Assembly: GCA_944392295.1 (NCBI GenBank)
Contig: CALXWE010000004.1
Span: 45,819 to 109,818, forward strand
Source of the DNA: an uncultured Alphaproteobacteria bacterium
GTDB lineage: Bacteria; Pseudomonadota; Alphaproteobacteria; RF32; CAG-239
Direction of reading: 5' to 3'
Length of the DNA stretch: 64,000 nt
Positions 36,278-44,419 of the stretch are shown one piece after another. A program made the position numbers and the translations under genes. Below the pieces are notes generated by a model, which saw only the letters and a program-made list of their open reading frames with translations, was not told the DNA's origin and searched no databases. Position 1 is the stretch's first letter; every line of letters starts with the position of its first letter.

Positions 36278-37069
36278 TTATTTTGTAAAATCAAACTGTA
36301 TCCACTGGTAAAAGTAAAGACTACCGTTATTTACAAACTCATTGTAACTTTTTTGGCAGGCTTCATAAAAATCGTGGGTTGTCATATTAGGTAGGCAAGG
36401 GGATGTAGATTTACAATTTTGCCGATAATAGTAATAATATGGTCGCTCAATCCAAACGGTTGTCAAAGATGAAGTTTCTGGTTGTATGGATTTTAACATC
36501 TGAAACGTATTAACACAAGCATCTACGGAGCTTTGTGCTTTGTTATAATGAATAATAAATGCAAGATTATTTCCATTTTTTCCTACATATAATTCTATGC
36601 TTATACCAAGAGAGGTTTTGACAACGTTTTTGCTTATATAAGATACACCATCAGGTAATGATTTTAATGTATTCAGTAACCCGGCGACATCTGTTCCCGA
36701 AGATGTTTTTTCGTAATATTTTTGTGAAATAGTCGATGTAACAGCGGTCAGCAGTTCCGAAATTTGTTGGGTGTGTTTATTTAATTTATATTTTGTCATC
36801 GCCTTAGAGTAGCCGGATATAGCGCCAACCGATAGAATGCCAATGATAGCAAGAACACCAAGCATTTCGACCATACTTCTTCCGGCGGAAAGTTTGTATA
36901 AGTGCTCATCTAAAGCCGTTTTACGGTACTGAAAAAAATTCATGTACTTTTTGTGTACACTAAAATTTTTTTCGCCCCTAGAAACGACTTTATCTAAACT
37001 CTTCTCCAAACTTTCGGGAAAAAAGGGGCTGATTTTTACGAATTGGCATAAAAATTGATAAAATTTCAT
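36278..37069 (-). CDS. Type IV pilin-like protein, variable family paralog D, 63-aa leader
   Basis: MKFYQFLCQFVKIS[33-aa insert]RKTALDEHLYKLSAG|RSMVEMLGVLAIIGILSVGAISGYSKAMTKYKLNKHTQQ. The same cassette precedes the MKF start. Confidence 0.7.
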   Translation of the reverse strand: MKFYQFLCQFVKISPFFPESLEKSLDKVVSRGEKNFSVHKKYMNFFQYRKTALDEHLYKLSAGRSMVEMLGVLAIIGILSVGAISGYSKAMTKYKLNKHTQQISELLTAVTSTISQKYYEKTSSGTDVAGLLNTLKSLPDGVSYISKNVVKTSLGISIELYVGKNGNNLAFIIHYNKAQSSVDACVNTFQMLKSIQPETSSLTTVWIERPYYYYYRQNCKSTSPCLPNMTTHDFYEACQKSYNEFVNNGSLYFYQWIQFDFTK

Positions 37070-38841: not shown

Positions 38842-39729
38842 ATGTATAAAGCACCTTTAACCGAAGATATTAACCCTAATACGCTAAATATTGACCTGAT
38901 GAGTTCGTATGAAATTGCCAAAGTAATGAATAACGAAGATAAAAAAGTTGCGGCGGCGGTTGAAACTCAGTTAAAACCGATTGCCGAAGCCATAGATTTA
39001 ATTGCTAAGGCATTTTTACGGGGCGGCAGGCTGGCTTATTTCGGGGCAGGTACCAGCGGAAGACTGGGAGTTTTGGACGCAAGCGAGTGTGTGCCGACTT
39101 TCGGCGTTGCTCCCGATATGGTACAAGGGTTTATCGCCGGCGGCGACAAAGCCTTAAGAAATTCAATCGAGGCCGCAGAAGACAGCAAAGAAAAAGCCCT
39201 CGAAGATGTGGAAAAATTTAATCCGAGTGCCGATGATGTGGTGGTCGGAATTTCGGCCAGCGGTAATCCTAAATACGTAATTACCGCGTTGCAGTTTGCC
39301 AAAGAAGCCGGATGTGCGACAGTGGCATTGGTTTGTAACCCTGAAGCCGAGGTAAAACGTTTTGCCGATGTTTTTATTTGTCCGATTGTCGGGCAGGAGG
39401 TTATTTCGGGGTCTTCGCGCTTAAAAGCCGGAACGGCGCAAAAAATGATTTTGAATATGCTCTCAACCGGGGCGATGATACGAATCGGCAAAACCTACAA
39501 AAATTATATGGTAGATATGCAGATGACTAACGAAAAATTGACCAGACGAGGCAAAAAAATCGTTGCGGAAATTACCGGTGTGGATATATCTCGTGCGGAA
39601 GAGCTTTTAAAACAATCCGATAATAAAATAAAAGAAGCTTGTGTAATGGCGGTTAAAAATTGTTCTTTGCCACAAGCTGAAAGTATGCTAAAAGAAGCCG
39701 GCGGTATTTTGAGAAAGGTTATCAAATGA
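38842..39729 (+). CDS. murQ: N-acetylmuramic acid 6-phosphate etherase
   Basis: SIS-domain motifs GGRLAYFGAGTSGRLGVLDASECVPTFG and ISASGNPKYV. 295 aa. Confidence 0.9.
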   Translation: MYKAPLTEDINPNTLNIDLMSSYEIAKVMNNEDKKVAAAVETQLKPIAEAIDLIAKAFLRGGRLAYFGAGTSGRLGVLDASECVPTFGVAPDMVQGFIAGGDKALRNSIEAAEDSKEKALEDVEKFNPSADDVVVGISASGNPKYVITALQFAKEAGCATVALVCNPEAEVKRFADVFICPIVGQEVISGSSRLKAGTAQKMILNMLSTGAMIRIGKTYKNYMVDMQMTNEKLTRRGKKIVAEITGVDISRAEELLKQSDNKIKEACVMAVKNCSLPQAESMLKEAGGILRKVIK

Positions 39730-40481
39730 AAAAATTTAATAAAAATTTTCCAGCAAAAACAGATGGCAAAGGTTTGATTTTATACGGCAGACACGCTGTA
39801 TTGTCGGCCTTAGAGAATCCGGCGCGAAAAATATTTAAATTAATGTGTACACCCGAAAACGCTAAAGAAATTTCGCAAAAATTTCCGAGTGTCCCGTTGG
39901 TAACGCTCGATAAAAAAGAAATTGATAAACTTTTGCCGGGTGATTGCGTACACCAGGGATTGGCTTTGTCTTGTCAGCCGTTGCCGGGGTTGAGTATTGA
40001 AGAATTGTGTGCCAAGGCCGAAAGAGTTGATAATGCACGGGTGCTTATTTTAGACCAAGTTACCGATCCGCAAAACATCGGGGCAATTATTCGCTCATGT
40101 GCGGCGTTTGGGGCTTTGGCTCTTATAGTGCAAGATAAAAACTCGCCGCTTGAAAGCGGAGCTATGGCTAAGGCTGCTGCCGGAACGATGGAATTTTTAC
40201 CGATAGTAAGAGTAACCAATTTGTCTCGGAGTATCGAAATTTTGAAAAAACACGGGTTTTGGGTTGTCGGTATGGACGGTTATGCTCAAACAACTATTGA
40301 TAAAATGGATAAAAGCGGCAAATTAGCAGTGATTATGGGAAGCGAAGGGGCAGGTATGCGTCGGCTTGTGGAGGAATCTTGCGACATAACGGTAAGATTG
40401 CCGATATCGGAAAAAGTCGAGAGCTTAAATGTTTCAACGGCGGCGGCCATTACTTTATACGAGCTGAGTTTGCAACGTTAA
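39726..40481 (+). CDS. rlmB: TrmH/SpoU-family RNA 2'-O-methyltransferase (RlmB-like)
   Basis: N-terminal substrate-binding region ILYGRHAVLSALENPARKI. SpoU motifs LILDQVTDPQNIGAIIRS, VIMGSEGAGMR and ESLNVSTAAAITLYE. Confidence 0.75.
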   Translation: MKKFNKNFPAKTDGKGLILYGRHAVLSALENPARKIFKLMCTPENAKEISQKFPSVPLVTLDKKEIDKLLPGDCVHQGLALSCQPLPGLSIEELCAKAERVDNARVLILDQVTDPQNIGAIIRSCAAFGALALIVQDKNSPLESGAMAKAAAGTMEFLPIVRVTNLSRSIEILKKHGFWVVGMDGYAQTTIDKMDKSGKLAVIMGSEGAGMRRLVEESCDITVRLPISEKVESLNVSTAAAITLYELSLQR

Positions 40482-40495
40482 TTTTTTTATCAAAA

Positions 40496-40530
40496 CAAAA
40501 AGAGCGGCTTTTTAAAGCGGCTCTTTTTTA
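40496..40530. terminator. Bidirectional terminator hairpin (copy 1 of a repeated hairpin)
   Basis: A-run, AGAGC-G-GCTT TTTA AAGC-G-GCTCT (40501-40524), T-run. The same stem, including the G/G mismatch, recurs at 43099-43122. Confidence 0.75.
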
Positions 40531-40547
40531 GTTTTAGTGTCGGTATT

Positions 40548-40781
40548 TTAGTGTTGATATCTATATACCGTTTCCAGTATGTCGCCAAAGGTTTGCCAAT
40601 GGTCGACTTCTAAATCGGGGATGCAGATTGTAAAGTTGATTTCCAAGTCGTATGACAACATGTCTTTACAAAAGTCATCAAACCCCACATCAGCTAAGAG
40701 CGTATGCTCATCCATTTCCGGCAAGTCAGGTATAATAAACTCCATAAGCTCCCGGACTTTTTGTGTTACATTTATTACCAT
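40548..40781 (-). CDS. ACP-fold-like small protein lacking the phosphopantetheine-attachment Ser (paralog 1)
   Basis: 77 aa. ...LLADVGFDDFCKDMLSYDLE... aligns with the ACP DLGxDSLD helix II region, with Asp at the Ser position. Confidence 0.5.
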   Translation of the reverse strand: MVINVTQKVRELMEFIIPDLPEMDEHTLLADVGFDDFCKDMLSYDLEINFTICIPDLEVDHWQTFGDILETVYRYQH

Positions 40782-40929
40782 AATTATAAATATTTATGAG
40801 TATGGTAAATTTTGTGAAAAATATAGTCAAGTACTATTTATATGTATAATCTGCTAACTTTATGAAAAAAGTGCTTGCTTTTATAAAAAAGGGGTTTTAT
40901 ATAAGACTTGTTTGATTGTTAAAGTCAGA

Positions 40930-41140
40930 CGGGACGTAGTTCAGCTTAGGTCAAGCGCTTGCATGGGGCTGGAGGCGAAAAACGTTCCGGTGGAACGTTT
41001 TTAACGACAGACGAAGTTTTGTTATTTTGTTTTCAAACGATAGTTTGAGTAAATAAAAGTTACAAAACAAGTGACCGCAGCGAGTTAGCGATTGACTTTT
41101 GGGAAAAGGCAGAGCTTACGAGCCAGACAAGAAGTCGGAG
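40930..41140 (+). pseudogene. Disrupted tRNA-Pro-derived copy: 5' half, 159-nt insert, 13-nt remnant of the 3' half
   Basis: 40930-40968 (CGGGACGTAGTTCAGCTTAGGTCAAGCGCTTGCATGGGG) matches the intact tRNA-Pro at 41184-41222 except in the D-loop. 41128-41140 (CAAGAAGTCGGAG) is identical to 41224-41236 of the intact gene. No T-arm or acceptor 3' strand follows. Confidence 0.6.
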
Positions 41141-41183
41141 ACTTCTTGCACGGAGCACAAGGGATTATTATATGTTTTATATA

Positions 41184-41260
41184 CGGGACGTAGTTCAGCC
41201 TGGTAGAGCGCTTGCATGGGGTGCAAGAAGTCGGAGGTTCAAATCCTCTCGTCCCGACCA
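41184..41260 (+). tRNA. tRNA-Pro (anticodon GGG)
   Basis: CGGGACGTAGTTCAGCCTGGTAGAGCGCTTGCATGGGGTGCAAGAAGTCGGAGGTTCAAATCCTCTCGTCCCGACCA. Full cloverleaf with anticodon loop AT-GGG-GT and encoded CCA. Confidence 0.9.
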
Positions 41261-41263
41261 AAT

Positions 41264-41293
41264 AAAAAAACCGCCTTTATGGCGGTTTTTTTA
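41264..41293 (+). terminator. Rho-independent terminator after tRNA-Pro
   Basis: AAAAAAACCGCC TTTAT GGCGGTTTTTTT. Confidence 0.8.
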
Positions 41294-41468
41294 TTCGGAG
41301 AGGATTATCCTCTTTGGCATCTAATTTCGCTTACGGCAATTCATTGCCTTAGCTCAATAAAATGTTCCAAAGAACCTGCAGACAAAAAACGCCGGAGCAG
41401 CGGCGTTTTTTACTTAAATAAAAAAGATACATCGACACATAATGCAAGGTATCTTTAGCTATGACCTA

Positions 41469-41735
41469 TTACTGCAGCAAAAGGACTATAAATTGTTTAT
41501 CCATTGATACCGTAGGCTCAAATATATAGCCTTTGCGCCCATCACGTAATATTCTCCACATTCCGGGAATGCTTGTGCTGATTTCAAGGACAACCTCTCC
41601 ATCAAGTTTCCACTGAGCAGTGGTGCTCTTTTTGTTATTGGTGGTGAAAGTTGATTTTGAAAAGCCAAAACGCTTTCCCCTGGCGTCTACCGTAAAAGTT
41701 TTACTTTCGGTTAATGCTTCTAGAACTATTTCCAT
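41469..41735 (-). CDS. Hypothetical small protein (88 aa)
   Basis: ORF MEIVLEALTESKTFTVDARGKRF... with no clear SD. Hairpin terminator AACGCCG-GAGCAG-CGGCGTT (about 41384-41412) lies downstream. Weak call. Confidence 0.35.
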   Translation of the reverse strand: MEIVLEALTESKTFTVDARGKRFGFSKSTFTTNNKKSTTAQWKLDGEVVLEISTSIPGMWRILRDGRKGYIFEPTVSMDKQFIVLLLQ

Positions 41736-41920
41736 AAACAAAAAAATTAAAGAGTTATGATAATTTATTATACCTATGTATTTATATCACATCTTTTATT
41801 ATGCGCAAGTTTTAAATGTACATTAGATATAGATTCTGTGTTTGTTTTTTATTGTTGATTTTCTTGACTTTGCAACGCAAAGTCAGTACCTTGCCGGATG
41901 TTATTAAAAGGAGAATCGTG

Positions 41921-43072
41921 ATGAAAAAATTGTGGCTGGCTTTGATGCTTATTATATGCTCTGCCAATTCGGCTTGGGCTATGCAAATCTTTGTTAAAAC
42001 TTTAACCGGTAAACATATTACTCTGGAAGTTGAACCTACCGATACAATTGGAGACATAAAACTTAAAATTCAAGATAAAGAGGGCATTGCCCCAAGTGAA
42101 CAAACCTTGGTCTTTGCCGGAAAAGAACTTGAAGATGCTAATACTTTACAAGATTACAGCATTTTCAAAGATTCAACTCTGCATTTAGTCTCAAACAATA
42201 AGGTTACCAATTTATCATTAAATGTTAATCCGGCTCATATTGTAAGGCAAAATGCCGATATGCTGCTTAATAACGTTGCAGCTCGTACAAGCGGCGGGAT
42301 TAGCTCCTATAAAAGTGCCGAACAAATAAATCTGCAGGATAATACTTCTCTTTGGGTCAGCACTCTTGCCGGACATTCACAATATTTAAATACCGATACT
42401 TATGGTCTTTCGTTGGCCTTTGAAAAGAAGCTGGCAGATTTTAAATATGGTTTAGGTTATGCTTATTTAAAAAATGATATTGATGATGCTTTAAACACCG
42501 ATGTACAAAATCATTCCGGCTTTGTATATGCCGAATATAAGCCTTCAGCTTGGTATACCAATGCCATAGTTATGTATTCTCATTCGCGGTTTGAAGAAAA
42601 TGATTTTAATAAATATAACGTTCAAGCTATATCTTCTCAGTTGATGAGCGGATATGATTTTTATTATGTTACGCCGGAAATGGGAATTAGATATATCCAT
42701 ATTTGGAATAACCGCTATACCAATGCTCAAAATATGCAAATGACTAAAAATAATGAAGATATTTTAACGGGGGTTATCGGTATAAAGCTGGCAAAAGAGA
42801 TAACCTTAAATGCCGATTATAGTTTTGTTCCGCAAGCCAAGGTCTCGGCATTATATGATTTTTCACGAGCCAGCGGCGTTGCCAATGCTTATGTAAACGG
42901 CAAATATGCTGTTGTTCATAGTGATGTAATGGCTAAGTATGCCACGGAAATTAATGTCGGGCTTAAACTGGTTAAACAAAATTCGTGGGAGACTTATTTA
43001 GGCTATTATGCACAGTTGCGGAATAATTATAATATTCATTCCGTAATTGTTAATTTTGCCTATGACTTTTAA
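41921..43072 (+). CDS. Autotransporter with a eukaryote-type ubiquitin passenger domain
   Basis: SD AAGGAG, then ATG at 41921. Signal peptide [20 protein letters not shown] (41921-41980). Ubiquitin-like module [70 protein letters not shown] (41981-42190). Helical linker, then a ~235-aa beta-strand-patterned domain ending VIVNFAYDF (autotransporter/OMP signature). The track ORF start at 41816 is rejected. Confidence 0.85.
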
Positions 43073-43091
43073 AAGTCTTTTGCTTTAAAAC

Positions 43092-43128
43092 AAAAAAAAG
43101 AGCGGCTTTTGTAAAGCGGCTCTTTTTT
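43092..43128. terminator. Bidirectional terminator hairpin (copy 2 of the repeated hairpin)
   Basis: A-run, AGAGC-G-GCTT TTGT AAGC-G-GCTCT (43099-43122), T-run. Lies between the convergent ubiquitin-autotransporter gene and ACP-like paralog 2. Confidence 0.8.
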
Positions 43129-43149
43129 CTATTTCTTTACAATGATGTT

Positions 43150-43401
43150 CTACTCGGCGTGGCTTTCCACACTCTCATAGAATTCATCGAGCATGTACCA
43201 GTCATCATCGACTTCGTCGGCCGGTACATCAATACCGAGCTGCTCTTTGAGCAGTCTGGCAAGCTCCTGGCATTCGAATGCTCCGAAACCCAAATCGGCA
43301 GCAAGACCGATTCTTGCAGGGTCAATGTCGTTGATGTTGGAAGGCAGGGTACGAACCTGGTTCATGACTGCCTGTACTTTGTCTCTTAATTCTGTATTCA
43401 T
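43150..43401 (-). CDS. ACP-fold-like small protein lacking the phosphopantetheine-attachment Ser (paralog 2)
   Basis: 83 aa. ...GLAADLGFGAFECQELARLLKEQLGIDVPADEV... aligns along E. coli ACP (…[32 protein letters not shown]…), with Ala at the Ser36 position. Confidence 0.55.
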   Translation of the reverse strand: MNTELRDKVQAVMNQVRTLPSNINDIDPARIGLAADLGFGAFECQELARLLKEQLGIDVPADEVDDDWYMLDEFYESVESHAE

Positions 43402-43486
43402 GGCTATACTTATTGGTTAATAATTCAAATTTGTAAATGTATCCTAACGGAGTTTTTGCCACAAGTCAAGATATTTTTGTCAAAAT

Positions 43487-44419
43487 TTAATCGCCGTGTT
43501 GGGATAACTCCTCATCAATGGCCTTGGCAAGCTCATCATCTATGGTAAAACCATCCTCATCTTCAGGTATAACGGTATAGTTTTGCGTATCTTCTAAAGA
43601 TTTTGCTTCAGGAGCATCGGGTTTTTGTTCGTTTGGTGTTACCGAATCGATGACTTCTTGTTTCGGGCTGTCAGATTGCTCGTTTTTTCCCGATACTGAC
43701 GAGTTTTGAGATGCCTCTTGGGCTGATAGCTTTTCCGACTCCGCATTTAAGGCTTTGGAAAGTTCTTCGGCAGGTATTACAACCGTTTCTTCCTCAGGGT
43801 CTTCATACGAGGTTTTTATATTGAGCAGGTTTTCAGGACCTCCGCTGTTTTCTTCTTTGTTTTCAGTTATCTTTTCTTCAGCTTTTTCTTCTTTATACAT
43901 AGTATCTTTAAATTCTATGGTGTTGTCGGCTTTTTCAAAGCTGTTTTCTTCAAGCTGTTGTTGTTCTTGTCTGATTTCTGCTAAACGCGGTAAGTTGTCG
44001 CGAGCAGCTAATGCCTCTTCGGATAATAACTGTTCGGGTTTGACCTCAGTATTGATGCACTTTAACAACCATACATCATATATCGGGTGTTCAACAGCGT
44101 TAATTGCCGGTGATGATGAAAACATCCAGCCTTTGAAAATGTTAAATTCTTCTTTATCAAAGCTTTTATCTGTTACATCTACAAAAGCAAAGTTTTCAGG
44201 TATTTCATCTTCCGAACGAGTTTTACAAGAGCGTACCACTACCGAAAATGATCCGAATTTTACTTCGCCTCCGACCGGAACTTCAATAACGCTTACGCGC
44301 CCGGTTATTTTATCCATGGCCTGCATTTGCGCCGTGTTCATATCTATCTCCGCGGCTCTAACCCCGGAAATGCTTAATAAAAAAGCGGCTGTCGAAAAAA
44401 GTGTTTGTTTAATTTTCAT
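43487..44419 (-). CDS. DUF2155-like secreted protein with a long acidic C-terminal extension
   Basis: Signal peptide. LDKITGRVSVIEVPVGGEVKFGSFSVVVRSC...FKGWMFSSSPAINAVEHPIYDVWLLKC matches my recollection of the DUF2155 pattern. About 170 extra E/D/S/K-rich residues. Overlaps mlaD by 11 nt. Confidence 0.6.
   Translation of the reverse strand: MKIKQTLFSTAAFLLSISGVRAAEIDMNTAQMQAMDKITGRVSVIEVPVGGEVKFGSFSVVVRSCKTRSEDEIPENFAFVDVTDKSFDKEEFNIFKGWMFSSSPAINAVEHPIYDVWLLKCINTEVKPEQLLSEEALAARDNLPRLAEIRQEQQQLEENSFEKADNTIEFKDTMYKEEKAEEKITENKEENSGGPENLLNIKTSYEDPEEETVVIPAEELSKALNAESEKLSAQEASQNSSVSGKNEQSDSPKQEVIDSVTPNEQKPDAPEAKSLEDTQNYTVIPEDEDGFTIDDELAKAIDEELSQHGD

Follow-up and report, generated by a model that had tools for sequence, protein, structure and literature searches.

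The secreted ubiquitin BfUbb of Bacteroides fragilis is a bacterial ubiquitin homolog encoded behind a signal peptide (PMC5705921, PMC6194340). Here we describe a locus in a 64-kb stretch of DNA from an uncultured alphaproteobacterium (the window, by which the full stretch is meant), where a gene of comparable kind lies within an inserted block. This gene, the ubiquitin autotransporter (Ub-AT), and BfUbb are both bacterial genes whose products combine a signal peptide with a ubiquitin closely related to that of eukaryotes; unlike BfUbb, the ubiquitin of Ub-AT is the predicted passenger of an autotransporter barrel and belongs to an alphaproteobacterium. No specific report of an alphaproteobacterial ubiquitin autotransporter was found in a literature search. 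The block is bordered by two small genes, ACP1 and ACP2, whose products are predicted to have the fold of the acyl carrier protein (ACP), and each of these genes is followed by a hairpin with the same stem mismatch, termed h1 and h2, respectively.

The mitochondrial ACP (mACP) of Plasmodium, which is without the serine of its kind, provides a precedent for a role that does not involve acyl carriage, namely that of an apo binding partner (PMC8547962). It has in common with ACP1 and ACP2 the four-helix fold, similarity in the region of the D-x-G-x-D-S-L motif, an acidic helix II and the missing phosphopantetheine serine. ACP1 and ACP2 differ from it in being bacterial, in falling below the Pfam and NCBIfam thresholds, in that the residue at the serine position is free to vary, in being hypervariable between close species, and in having no known partner of the LYR/Isd11 type. 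For the hairpins, the sbrB/lexA pair of Staphylococcus aureus offers a comparison, as a mispair in the stem of the sbrB terminator causes antisense read-through into the convergent gene (PMC8745188). Both this terminator and h1/h2 combine a G+C-rich stem containing a mispair with flanking A- and T-tracts and can be read on both strands, at 19-26 nt from the stop codons in the present case. The mispair of sbrB is a strain polymorphism, whereas that of h1/h2 is conserved across species and in both paralogous copies.

The locus also resembles tRNA-linked islands and defence hot spots, in that a tRNA gene is followed immediately on its 3' side by variable cargo, and the cargo includes the Tiamat protein TmtA and a CRISPR-Cas system. 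A repeat of the tRNA 3' end is found in the sister species, and no second copy was found in the window. It departs from typical islands of this type in that no integrase is seen, the tRNA gene itself lies in an older inserted block, and the repeated ACP genes and hairpins are not attachment sites. On our reading, the locus combines an insertion between two copies of a duplicated gene unit, a tRNA-linked cargo slot and a family of serine-less ACP-fold proteins, each of which is of a known kind. What was least to be expected is that the ACP1-type genes are hypervariable and that a predicted terminator bearing a mismatch is deeply conserved.

Synteny and the probable history of the insertion

The gene order at this site was compared with that of related loci retrieved from other assemblies, which are designated by L-numbers. 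In L137-140, L147-148 and L152-153 the row MlaD-MlaD-DUF2155 continues uninterrupted into a single ACP1-type gene followed by a convergent gene for an rlmB-like methyltransferase, and no Ub-AT, tRNA-Pro or second ACP-like gene is present at the site. Each of these uninterrupted lineages is represented by 2-4 independent assemblies. The ACP1-type gene is convergent to rlmB in 8 of the 8 family lineages examined, including that of L152, where an IS200-like element separates the pair. The rlmB genes of the uninterrupted loci are 80% (L137-140) or 72-73% (L147-148) identical to that of the window, and those of the insert-bearing loci 84-89%. The insert-bearing set comprises the window species (L001-L008), a sister species (L009-L016 and L100), species C (L145 and L151, both from one sample) and L146. 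In the window species group about 2.6 kb of additional DNA, consisting of ACP2, a copy of the hairpin, Ub-AT and tRNA-Pro, occupies the site, and Ub-AT and ACP2 are found in every member of the group seen. L145 and L146 each carry an ACP1-type gene with its hairpin and a tRNA-Pro sequence just upstream, which in L146 directly adjoins the ACP1-type gene.

An earlier note on this DNA had described the two ACP-like genes as the borders of an island-like module, had suggested that a duplication or insertion delivered its accessory genes at tRNA-Pro, and had proposed a synteny comparison as a test. The comparison, with an uninterrupted DUF2155-ACP-like-rlmB order in three more distant lineages, favours insertion in the ancestor of the close group; the opposite outcome, the same layout in all relatives, was not seen. 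An insertion with an ACP-like unit on both sides is thus supported by synteny. The near-identity of the hairpins is no sign of recency, the hairpin being conserved, and the genes were not delivered at tRNA-Pro, which itself lies inside the inserted block. The contents listed between the repeats (tRNA-Pro, a 5'-half copy of it, a small orphan ORF (open reading frame) and the ubiquitin autotransporter) are all present as described. As regards the module as an insert, Ub-AT and ACP2 are fixed in the group, and the part that still varies is the 3' flank of tRNA-Pro (41333/41417-41861) together with a 254-nt unit.

The uninterrupted loci might in principle be derived rather than ancestral. Recombination between the repeated units upstream of their ORFs would be expected to yield the order DUF2155-ACP1-type gene-hairpin-rlmB, such that a two-copy layout could have been reduced by deletion between the direct repeats. 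We consider this very improbable, as the same event would be needed separately in three outgroup lineages (rlmB 72-80%), ACP2 is not found outside the group, the outgroups have no tRNA-Pro at the site, and the two Ub-AT homologs that were looked up in distant relatives lie elsewhere.

On balance we favour a history in which an ancestral single unit came to be present twice, around a block with Ub-AT and tRNA-Pro, and the two copies met with different fates. The ancestral layout would have consisted of mlaD-mlaD-DUF2155, one small transcription unit, and rlmB on the opposite strand, the unit being made up of a promoter, a gene for a serine-less ACP-fold protein and a hairpin acting as a bidirectional terminator. 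This unit would have become two in the ancestor of the window species group (rlmB at least 84% identical), with a block of about 2.3 kb carrying Ub-AT and tRNA-Pro(GGG) between them; as the source of the second copy we favour a local duplication. The copy on the rlmB side, ACP1, would have retained the fast, hypervariable evolution typical of the family, and the copy on the DUF2155 side, ACP2, would have diverged and then become conserved. One sister species would later have lost ACP1 and h1; the 3' flank of tRNA-Pro would have become a hot spot for the exchange of cargo that includes defence genes; and the 254-nt unit, which carries the 5' half of the tRNA, probably expands and contracts 5' of the tRNA gene. 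Duplication of the whole unit followed by asymmetric evolution fits because ACP2 is conserved in the group, is 26-36% identical to ACP1-type proteins and is equidistant from all of them.

Several points weigh against this history. The polarity of the event is taken from rlmB identity as a proxy for phylogeny. No integrase, transposase or target-site duplication is found where the block begins or ends. With the ACP1 of the window ACP2 scores 22 bits, and with the remaining ACP1-type proteins 21-35 bits; as it is thus equidistant from them, a local duplication is not demonstrable from sequence. The count of hairpin copies in the organism covers the 64-kb window, 275,600 bp of related loci and the listed matches of a scan of collection contigs. 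Finally, a sister species without ACP1, h1 or any remnant of them fits a history without duplication equally well.

In that sister species (L014, L016) the stop codon of rlmB abuts the promoter region of tRNA-Pro. We read the absence of ACP1 and h1 as a secondary loss because L145, L146 and the window species carry them. The order seen there, DUF2155-ACP2-h2-Ub-AT-...-tRNA-Pro-rlmB, is exactly that of a history in which nothing was duplicated: the Ub-AT/tRNA-Pro block would have entered between the hairpin and rlmB, ACP2 would be the ortholog in situ, and ACP1 with h1 would have been re-acquired later by cassette-like lateral transfer from a clade member. ACP2 indeed holds the ancestral place next to DUF2155. 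The ACP1 ORF also has the appearance of a cassette, its nucleotide identity between loci being 55-60% inside as against 80-88% in the flanking promoter region and rlmB and 100% in the hairpin. ACP1-type proteins are 34-56% identical in every lineage pair irrespective of the identity of rlmB (68-87%), and the promoter and first codons of ACP1 in the window strain are mosaic. Even so, we regard such a history as unlikely. The window species, L145 and L146 carry an ACP1-type gene and hairpin at the same place, which would call either for an early gain, with a loss in the sister species needed anyway, or for repeated gain. Nothing close to a donor allele turned up, as the ACP1 of the window has 58% identity to its best match. 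It would also leave unexplained why a resident gene that was never duplicated diverged to 26-36% identity and was then conserved at 82-98%.

A third history, to which we give a still smaller chance, would have ACP2 and h2 arrive as part of the insertion. A related bacterium would have been the source of a circular DNA with an ACP-like unit, Ub-AT and tRNA-Pro, whose integration by Campbell-type homologous recombination left the unit directly repeated at either end. Such a repeat of an entire transcription unit around foreign-looking cargo is the classic product of a single crossover, and the equidistance of ACP2 from all ACP1-type proteins is compatible with such an origin. The G+C content of Ub-AT is 0.33-0.37, as compared to 0.40-0.45 in rlmB and the mla genes, and the two Ub-AT homologs looked up lie at other loci in other lineages. 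Set against this, the window has other native parts with as high an A+T content, a search of 1.84 billion representatives gave no ACP2-type gene from outside the group, and in every other lineage the hairpin abuts rlmB rather than Ub-AT, such that no plausible donor layout is known. On the favoured reading, the eukaryote-like ubiquitin autotransporter lies within an insertion that can be dated.

A predicted mismatch-bearing terminator, older than the proposed duplication

The earlier note had pointed to near-identical hairpins with the same G/G mismatch behind both ACP-like genes, and the same arms are indeed found at both: h1 is AGAGCGGCTT-TTTA-AAGCGGCTCT and h2 is AGAGCGGCTT-TTGTA-AAGCGGCTCT, the loop of the latter having 5 nt and not 4 nt as first described. 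These are the sole matches to the hairpin pattern within the window, where none is expected, and two matches occurred in 0 of 100 shuffles. Each strand of each hairpin folds with a single 1x1 internal loop, with free energies (dG) of -17 to -23 kcal/mol and z-scores of -4.7 to -7.4 (for h1, -17.9 and -17.0, z about -5), and equally stable folds were seen in 0 of 200 shuffles for both. An A-tract lies upstream and a T-tract downstream of each, and each separates a convergent gene pair, h1 standing 19 nt from the stop codon of rlmB and 23 nt from that of ACP1, and h2 26 nt from those of Ub-AT and ACP2. A stable G+C-rich stem-loop with T-runs on both strands between convergent genes is the configuration of a bidirectional intrinsic terminator, and we predict this function for both hairpins on the strength of the stem and the U-tracts; a simple terminator scan missed them because of the mismatch in the stem. 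Apart from about 37 nt that include the hairpin, the DNA of the two regions shows no likeness, and the coding parts align at background level. A possible extension of the similarity past the hairpin on the rlmB/Ub-AT side (17 of 29 bases matching, AT-rich, counted by hand) was judged unconvincing.

The near-identity of h1 and h2 is not a mark of a recent duplication or of a mobile repeat, as the same hairpin with the same mismatch stands behind ACP1-type proteins that are about 50% identical and whose genes are saturated at synonymous sites. In L145 the 22-nt hairpin is identical to that of the window next to an ACP1-type protein of 50% identity; in L136 the arms are identical and the loop is longer; in L137 the outer stem and the mismatch are kept; and L146 shows one compensatory change, from G-C to A-U, directly beside the mismatch. 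When the 7 distinct hairpin sequences are aligned, 95% of the cells pair, 3 pairs are changed on both sides and the column of the C.C (G.G) mismatch is invariant. The synonymous sites of ACP1 are saturated, yet the adjoining hairpin is conserved across lineages. As judged from these sequences, the hairpin predates the proposed duplication, and strong purifying selection acts on it as the predicted terminator that two convergent genes share. Weakly similar proteins are thus found beside identical hairpins because a slowly evolving terminator adjoins a fast-evolving gene, which is a caution for the reading of genomes in general: where genes of low similarity are accompanied by short hairpins that are almost the same, neither a recent duplication nor a mobile repeat has to be assumed. 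By analogy with sbrB (PMC8745188), the 1x1 mismatch, being conserved, probably serves to adjust termination, or the read-through into the opposite gene.

A further alternative would see in the hairpin a dispersed element of small size, of the repetitive extragenic palindrome (REP) or miniature inverted-repeat transposable element (MITE) type, which landed independently behind both genes. Like REPs, the hairpins associated with REP-associated tyrosine transposases (RAYTs) and the end hairpins of IS200/IS605 elements, h1 and h2 are short imperfect palindromes in intergenic DNA; REPs and IS200/IS605 ends are often imperfect palindromes with a conserved mismatch, as these are, and in one lineage (L152) a gene for an IS200/IS605-type Y1 transposase lies in the same intergenic gap. 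Unlike such elements, h1 and h2 are not dispersed, are tied to a single gene family and have no associated Y1 transposase here. REP- or MITE-type elements would occupy many unrelated intergenic sites; only the two copies are present in the 64-kb window, and 27 of the 27 copies in 275,600 bp of related loci stand directly 3' of ACP-like genes. A contig collection was also scanned with a pattern that was degenerate (S) at the mismatch position. At least 119 stretches matched, among them generic perfect terminators from many phyla, and the G/G form was present in 4 of the matches listed, one of which (L100) is from a relative. Among the matches listed, the reference bin of the sister species has one, as against seven loci in Caldithrix sp. 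CAYHEC01 (L018, L051, L054, L105, L119, L133, L134), none of them in the G/G mismatch form. The IS200-like element of L152 has unrelated flanking hairpins. We therefore consider an independent landing of a dispersed element extremely improbable, and the suggestion in the earlier note of a repeated extragenic element is disfavoured.

Two more specific readings of the hairpin were tried and rejected. It does not represent a pair of AGCCGCT sites for a DNA-binding protein, as in L146 the two 'repeats' differ (AGCCACT, AGTCGCT) in exactly such a way that pairing survives. A link to IS200/IS605 or RAYT elements was rejected as the Y1 transposase of L152 has unrelated hairpins, and the ACP terminator of that locus is a different sequence. 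The Y1 transposase gene of L152 (8240-8920; GCA_964410325.1, CAYPFN010000006.1) lies between the ACP-like gene and rlmB and carries its own flanking hairpins of the ACCGGCTAGGCCGGT type. The AGAGCSGCTT...AAGCSGCTCT hairpin of Caldithrix sp. CAYHEC01 appears to be a genuine repeat family in an unrelated genome.

ACP-fold proteins lacking the phosphopantetheine serine

The two minus-strand genes had been described as coding for ACP-fold-like proteins with weak mutual similarity, and both statements are borne out. Pairwise BLASTP finds 35% identity over 46 residues (expectation value (E) 5e-4); at the family level the relation is clear, the ACP1-type and ACP2 profiles matching in hhalign with a probability of 96.9% and E of 1.5e-10, at 26% identity. 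The ACP2 profile in fact matches the ACP1-type profile far better than any solved ACP (E 2.6e-3). Pfam gave no match at E <= 0.1 for either protein, such that the curated threshold of PF00550 was not reached, and against the ACP models of NCBIfam ACP1 scored 18 bits (cut-offs at least 70) and ACP2 nothing; nor did Pfam, NCBIfam or PADLOC give anything usable for ACP1, ACP2 or the 90-aa ORF of the locus. The profile check that had been proposed for these proteins succeeds: a joint profile reaches dozens of solved ACP structures, with mitochondrial ACPs on top (E 4.4e-5), and the profile of the ACP1 type reaches solved ACPs at E 4.4e-6. AlphaFold models have mean confidence (pLDDT) values of 93.8 for ACP1 and 89.6 for ACP2, and among the top 50 Foldseek matches in the PDB for each model almost all are ACPs, carrier proteins or carrier domains, with TM-scores of 0.50-0.85 (maxima 0.85 for ACP1 and 0.79 for ACP2). 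The models thus predict the four-helix-bundle ACP fold for both proteins.

Alignment to the profiles confirms that the phosphopantetheine serine of the DSL motif is missing from both, being replaced by aspartate in ACP1 and alanine in ACP2. Across these proteins the position holds D, E, R, Q, N, V, F or A, and S once; within the ACP1-type family it holds D, E, R, Q, N, S, V or F. The protein of the L152 lineage (P0013) is the one that retains the serine (GFDSF). The ACP1-type family (P0006, P0009-P0014 and P0018) consists of proteins of 65-89 residues with a C-terminal ..RYQH and forms at least eight clusters among the 1.84 billion representatives. ACP2, by contrast, forms one 50%-identity cluster, and its homologs are found only at 80-98% identity. 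Between ACP2 and its counterpart in the sister species, nonsynonymous divergence (dN) is 0.14 and synonymous divergence (dS) 1.72; as judged from this comparison ACP2 is under purifying selection. The family is a clade-restricted, unannotated group of ACP-fold proteins that are unable to carry phosphopantetheine and evolve at an unusual rate.

With no serine to take the phosphopantetheine, any role of these proteins would be independent of acyl carriage. By analogy with the mACP of Plasmodium, ACP1 and ACP2 most likely act as binding partners of the apo-ACP type, which would make them a bacterial counterpart to the idea of apo-ACP in apicomplexan mitochondria. The position of ACP2 after mlaD-mlaD-DUF2155, with no intervening terminator, gives a weak hint at a partner. 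A more far-reaching proposal, which we regard as doubtful, is that the ACP1-type gene is a hypervariable cassette between a conserved promoter and the mismatch terminator, whose alleles are exchanged or diversified between closely related species like those of small proteins involved in conflict (immunity, anti-defence or other). The mismatch would then be leaky by design and couple the gene to its convergent neighbour via antisense read-through, and ACP2 would be an allele that was captured and fixed for a stable function beside mla/DUF2155.

The hypervariability of the ACP1-type ORF is seen at 40548-40880 of the window, 1-450 of L145 and 1-420 of L146, where the promoter region and hairpin that flank it are conserved. 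The promoter and first six codons of ACP1 in the window strain are unlike those of all eight other contigs of the same species and partly like those of species C, which suggests mosaic recombination at this 5' end. By inspection, a putative promoter of the form TTGACT-N17-TAnnAT is present upstream of ACP1, ACP2 and the ACP1-type genes of relatives. A near-palindromic, AT-rich motif of 19 nt, ATATTTTT[C/G][A/T]CAAAATTTA, is found in the promoter regions of both ACP1 (40806-40824) and ACP2 (43471-43489); it has opposite orientations relative to the two genes, is missing from the ACP1 promoter of other strains and may be due to chance.

The ubiquitin autotransporter

The passenger of Ub-AT matches human ubiquitin with E of 1.6e-29 over residues 1-71 and is without the LRLRGG tail; from its sequence it is a true ubiquitin. 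Residues 116-384 match the autotransporter barrel model TIGR01414 with 53.7 bits (cut-off 16). A C-terminal barrel, a ubiquitin passenger and a signal peptide, the last by inspection, together constitute the architecture of a type Va autotransporter. The predicted signal-peptide cleavage would give an N-terminus of MQIFVKT. Homologs of 52-57% identity share the combination of ubiquitin and barrel, and one homolog carries PF03797. The two homologs that were looked up, L149 and L150 (both 57%), are at unrelated loci and are without this hairpin. In L100, from the reference bin of the sister species (9-224; CALXTJ010000029.1, isolate BRZ_KS__bin114), no Ub-AT is seen past the ACP2 hairpin, and a 71-residue C-terminal fragment stands there at the end of the contig, with a likeness to IS110-type transposases by eye.

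tRNA-Pro, the 254-nt unit and the cargo slot

The 'disrupted tRNA-Pro copy' of the earlier note is a 5'-half copy that belongs to the 254-nt unit, which consists of the first 38 nt of the tRNA and a 216-nt leader. The unit varies in copy number, being present in no copy in L003 and L005, one in the window and L001, and two in L004; the regions concerned are 40929-41183 of the window, 9258-10000 of L004 and 9765-10000 of L003. Within the leader, 13 nt (41128-41140) repeat a piece of tRNA-Pro in direct orientation, and 12 nt (41140-41151) are perfectly complementary to tRNA-Pro sequence. The block of tRNA and leader is 90-93% identical to that of the sister species, as compared to about 80% in the neighbouring genes. 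Rfam at a permissive threshold found only the tRNA in 40780-41920, other matches being far below their gathering scores.

Strain-variable cargo adjoins tRNA-Pro on its 3' side, as is typical of tRNA-linked islands, and four contents of the slot were seen (the 90-aa ORF, TmtA, Cas9-Cas1-Cas2 or almost nothing), besides two other genes in L151 (Table 1). The breakpoints of homology are constant: towards the tRNA they fall at 41332 or 41416, and on the opposite side at 41862, a short way upstream of the promoter of Ub-AT. Copies of the last 17 nt of tRNA-Pro are found in the sister-species loci L010, L013 and L016, and a second copy was not found in the window. In none of the versions of the locus do the called genes include an integrase or recombinase. 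We identify the tRNA-Pro flank as a slot where Tiamat and CRISPR-Cas9 defence systems come and go.

Table 1. Features of the locus, with positions in the window unless a related locus is named
Feature	Position	Strand	Description
rlmB-like SpoU methyltransferase gene	39726..40481	+	PF00588 (E 2.8e-40), PF08032; conserved right-hand edge of the locus
h1	40494..40530 (stem 40501-40524)		between rlmB and ACP1; G.G on the + strand, C.C on the - strand
ACP1	40548..40781	-	77 aa; predicted ACP fold; Asp at the Ser36 position (GFDDF); hypervariable ACP1-type family
ACP1 promoter-like site	40802..40830	-	TTGACT-17-TACCAT
Degenerate 5'-half copy of tRNA-Pro (positions 1-38)	40929..40968	+	opens the 254-nt unit
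Leader of the 254-nt unit	40969..41183	+	terminator-like hairpin at 40978-41002; copy of and complement to tRNA-Pro segments
tRNA-Pro(GGG), intact	41184..41260	+	lies inside the inserted block
Attachment-site (att)-like core	41244..41332	+	last 17 nt of tRNA-Pro, terminator and second hairpin; direct repeat in the sister species
Strain-variable cargo slot	41333..41861		homology breakpoints 41332/41416 and 41862
90-aa orphan ORF	41469-41741	-	90 aa from TTG, 88 aa from ATG; sole content of the slot in the window
Ub-AT	41918..43072	+	ubiquitin PF00240 (E 2e-24); autotransporter barrel TIGR01414 (E 1.7e-14); fixed component of the insert
h2	43088..43134 (stem 43099-43123)		copy of h1; between Ub-AT and ACP2; in all sister-species and species-C loci
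ACP2	43150..43401	-	83 aa; predicted ACP fold; Ala at the Ser position (GFGAF); this species group only
ACP2 promoter-like site	43441..43469	-	TTGACT-17-TAGGAT
DUF2155 gene	43487..44419	-	PF09923 (E 2e-30); last of the mlaD-mlaD-DUF2155 row; conserved left-hand edge
Slot content, L004	L004 4594-9147		Tiamat TmtA, 1517 aa (PADLOC, E 3e-266)
Slot content, L009 and L011	L009 12626-17366		Cas9-Cas1-Cas2, type II CRISPR-Cas
Slot content, L151			two other genes
Slot content, L016	L016 1751-1825, 1929-2003		nearly empty; 78-nt direct repeat with the last 17 nt of tRNA-Pro

Elsewhere in the window, an ORF of 263 aa next to the EF-Tu gene (36278-37069) has, by eye only, a motif resembling a prepilin-type N-terminus (GRSMVEMLGVLAIIGILSVGAISGY).

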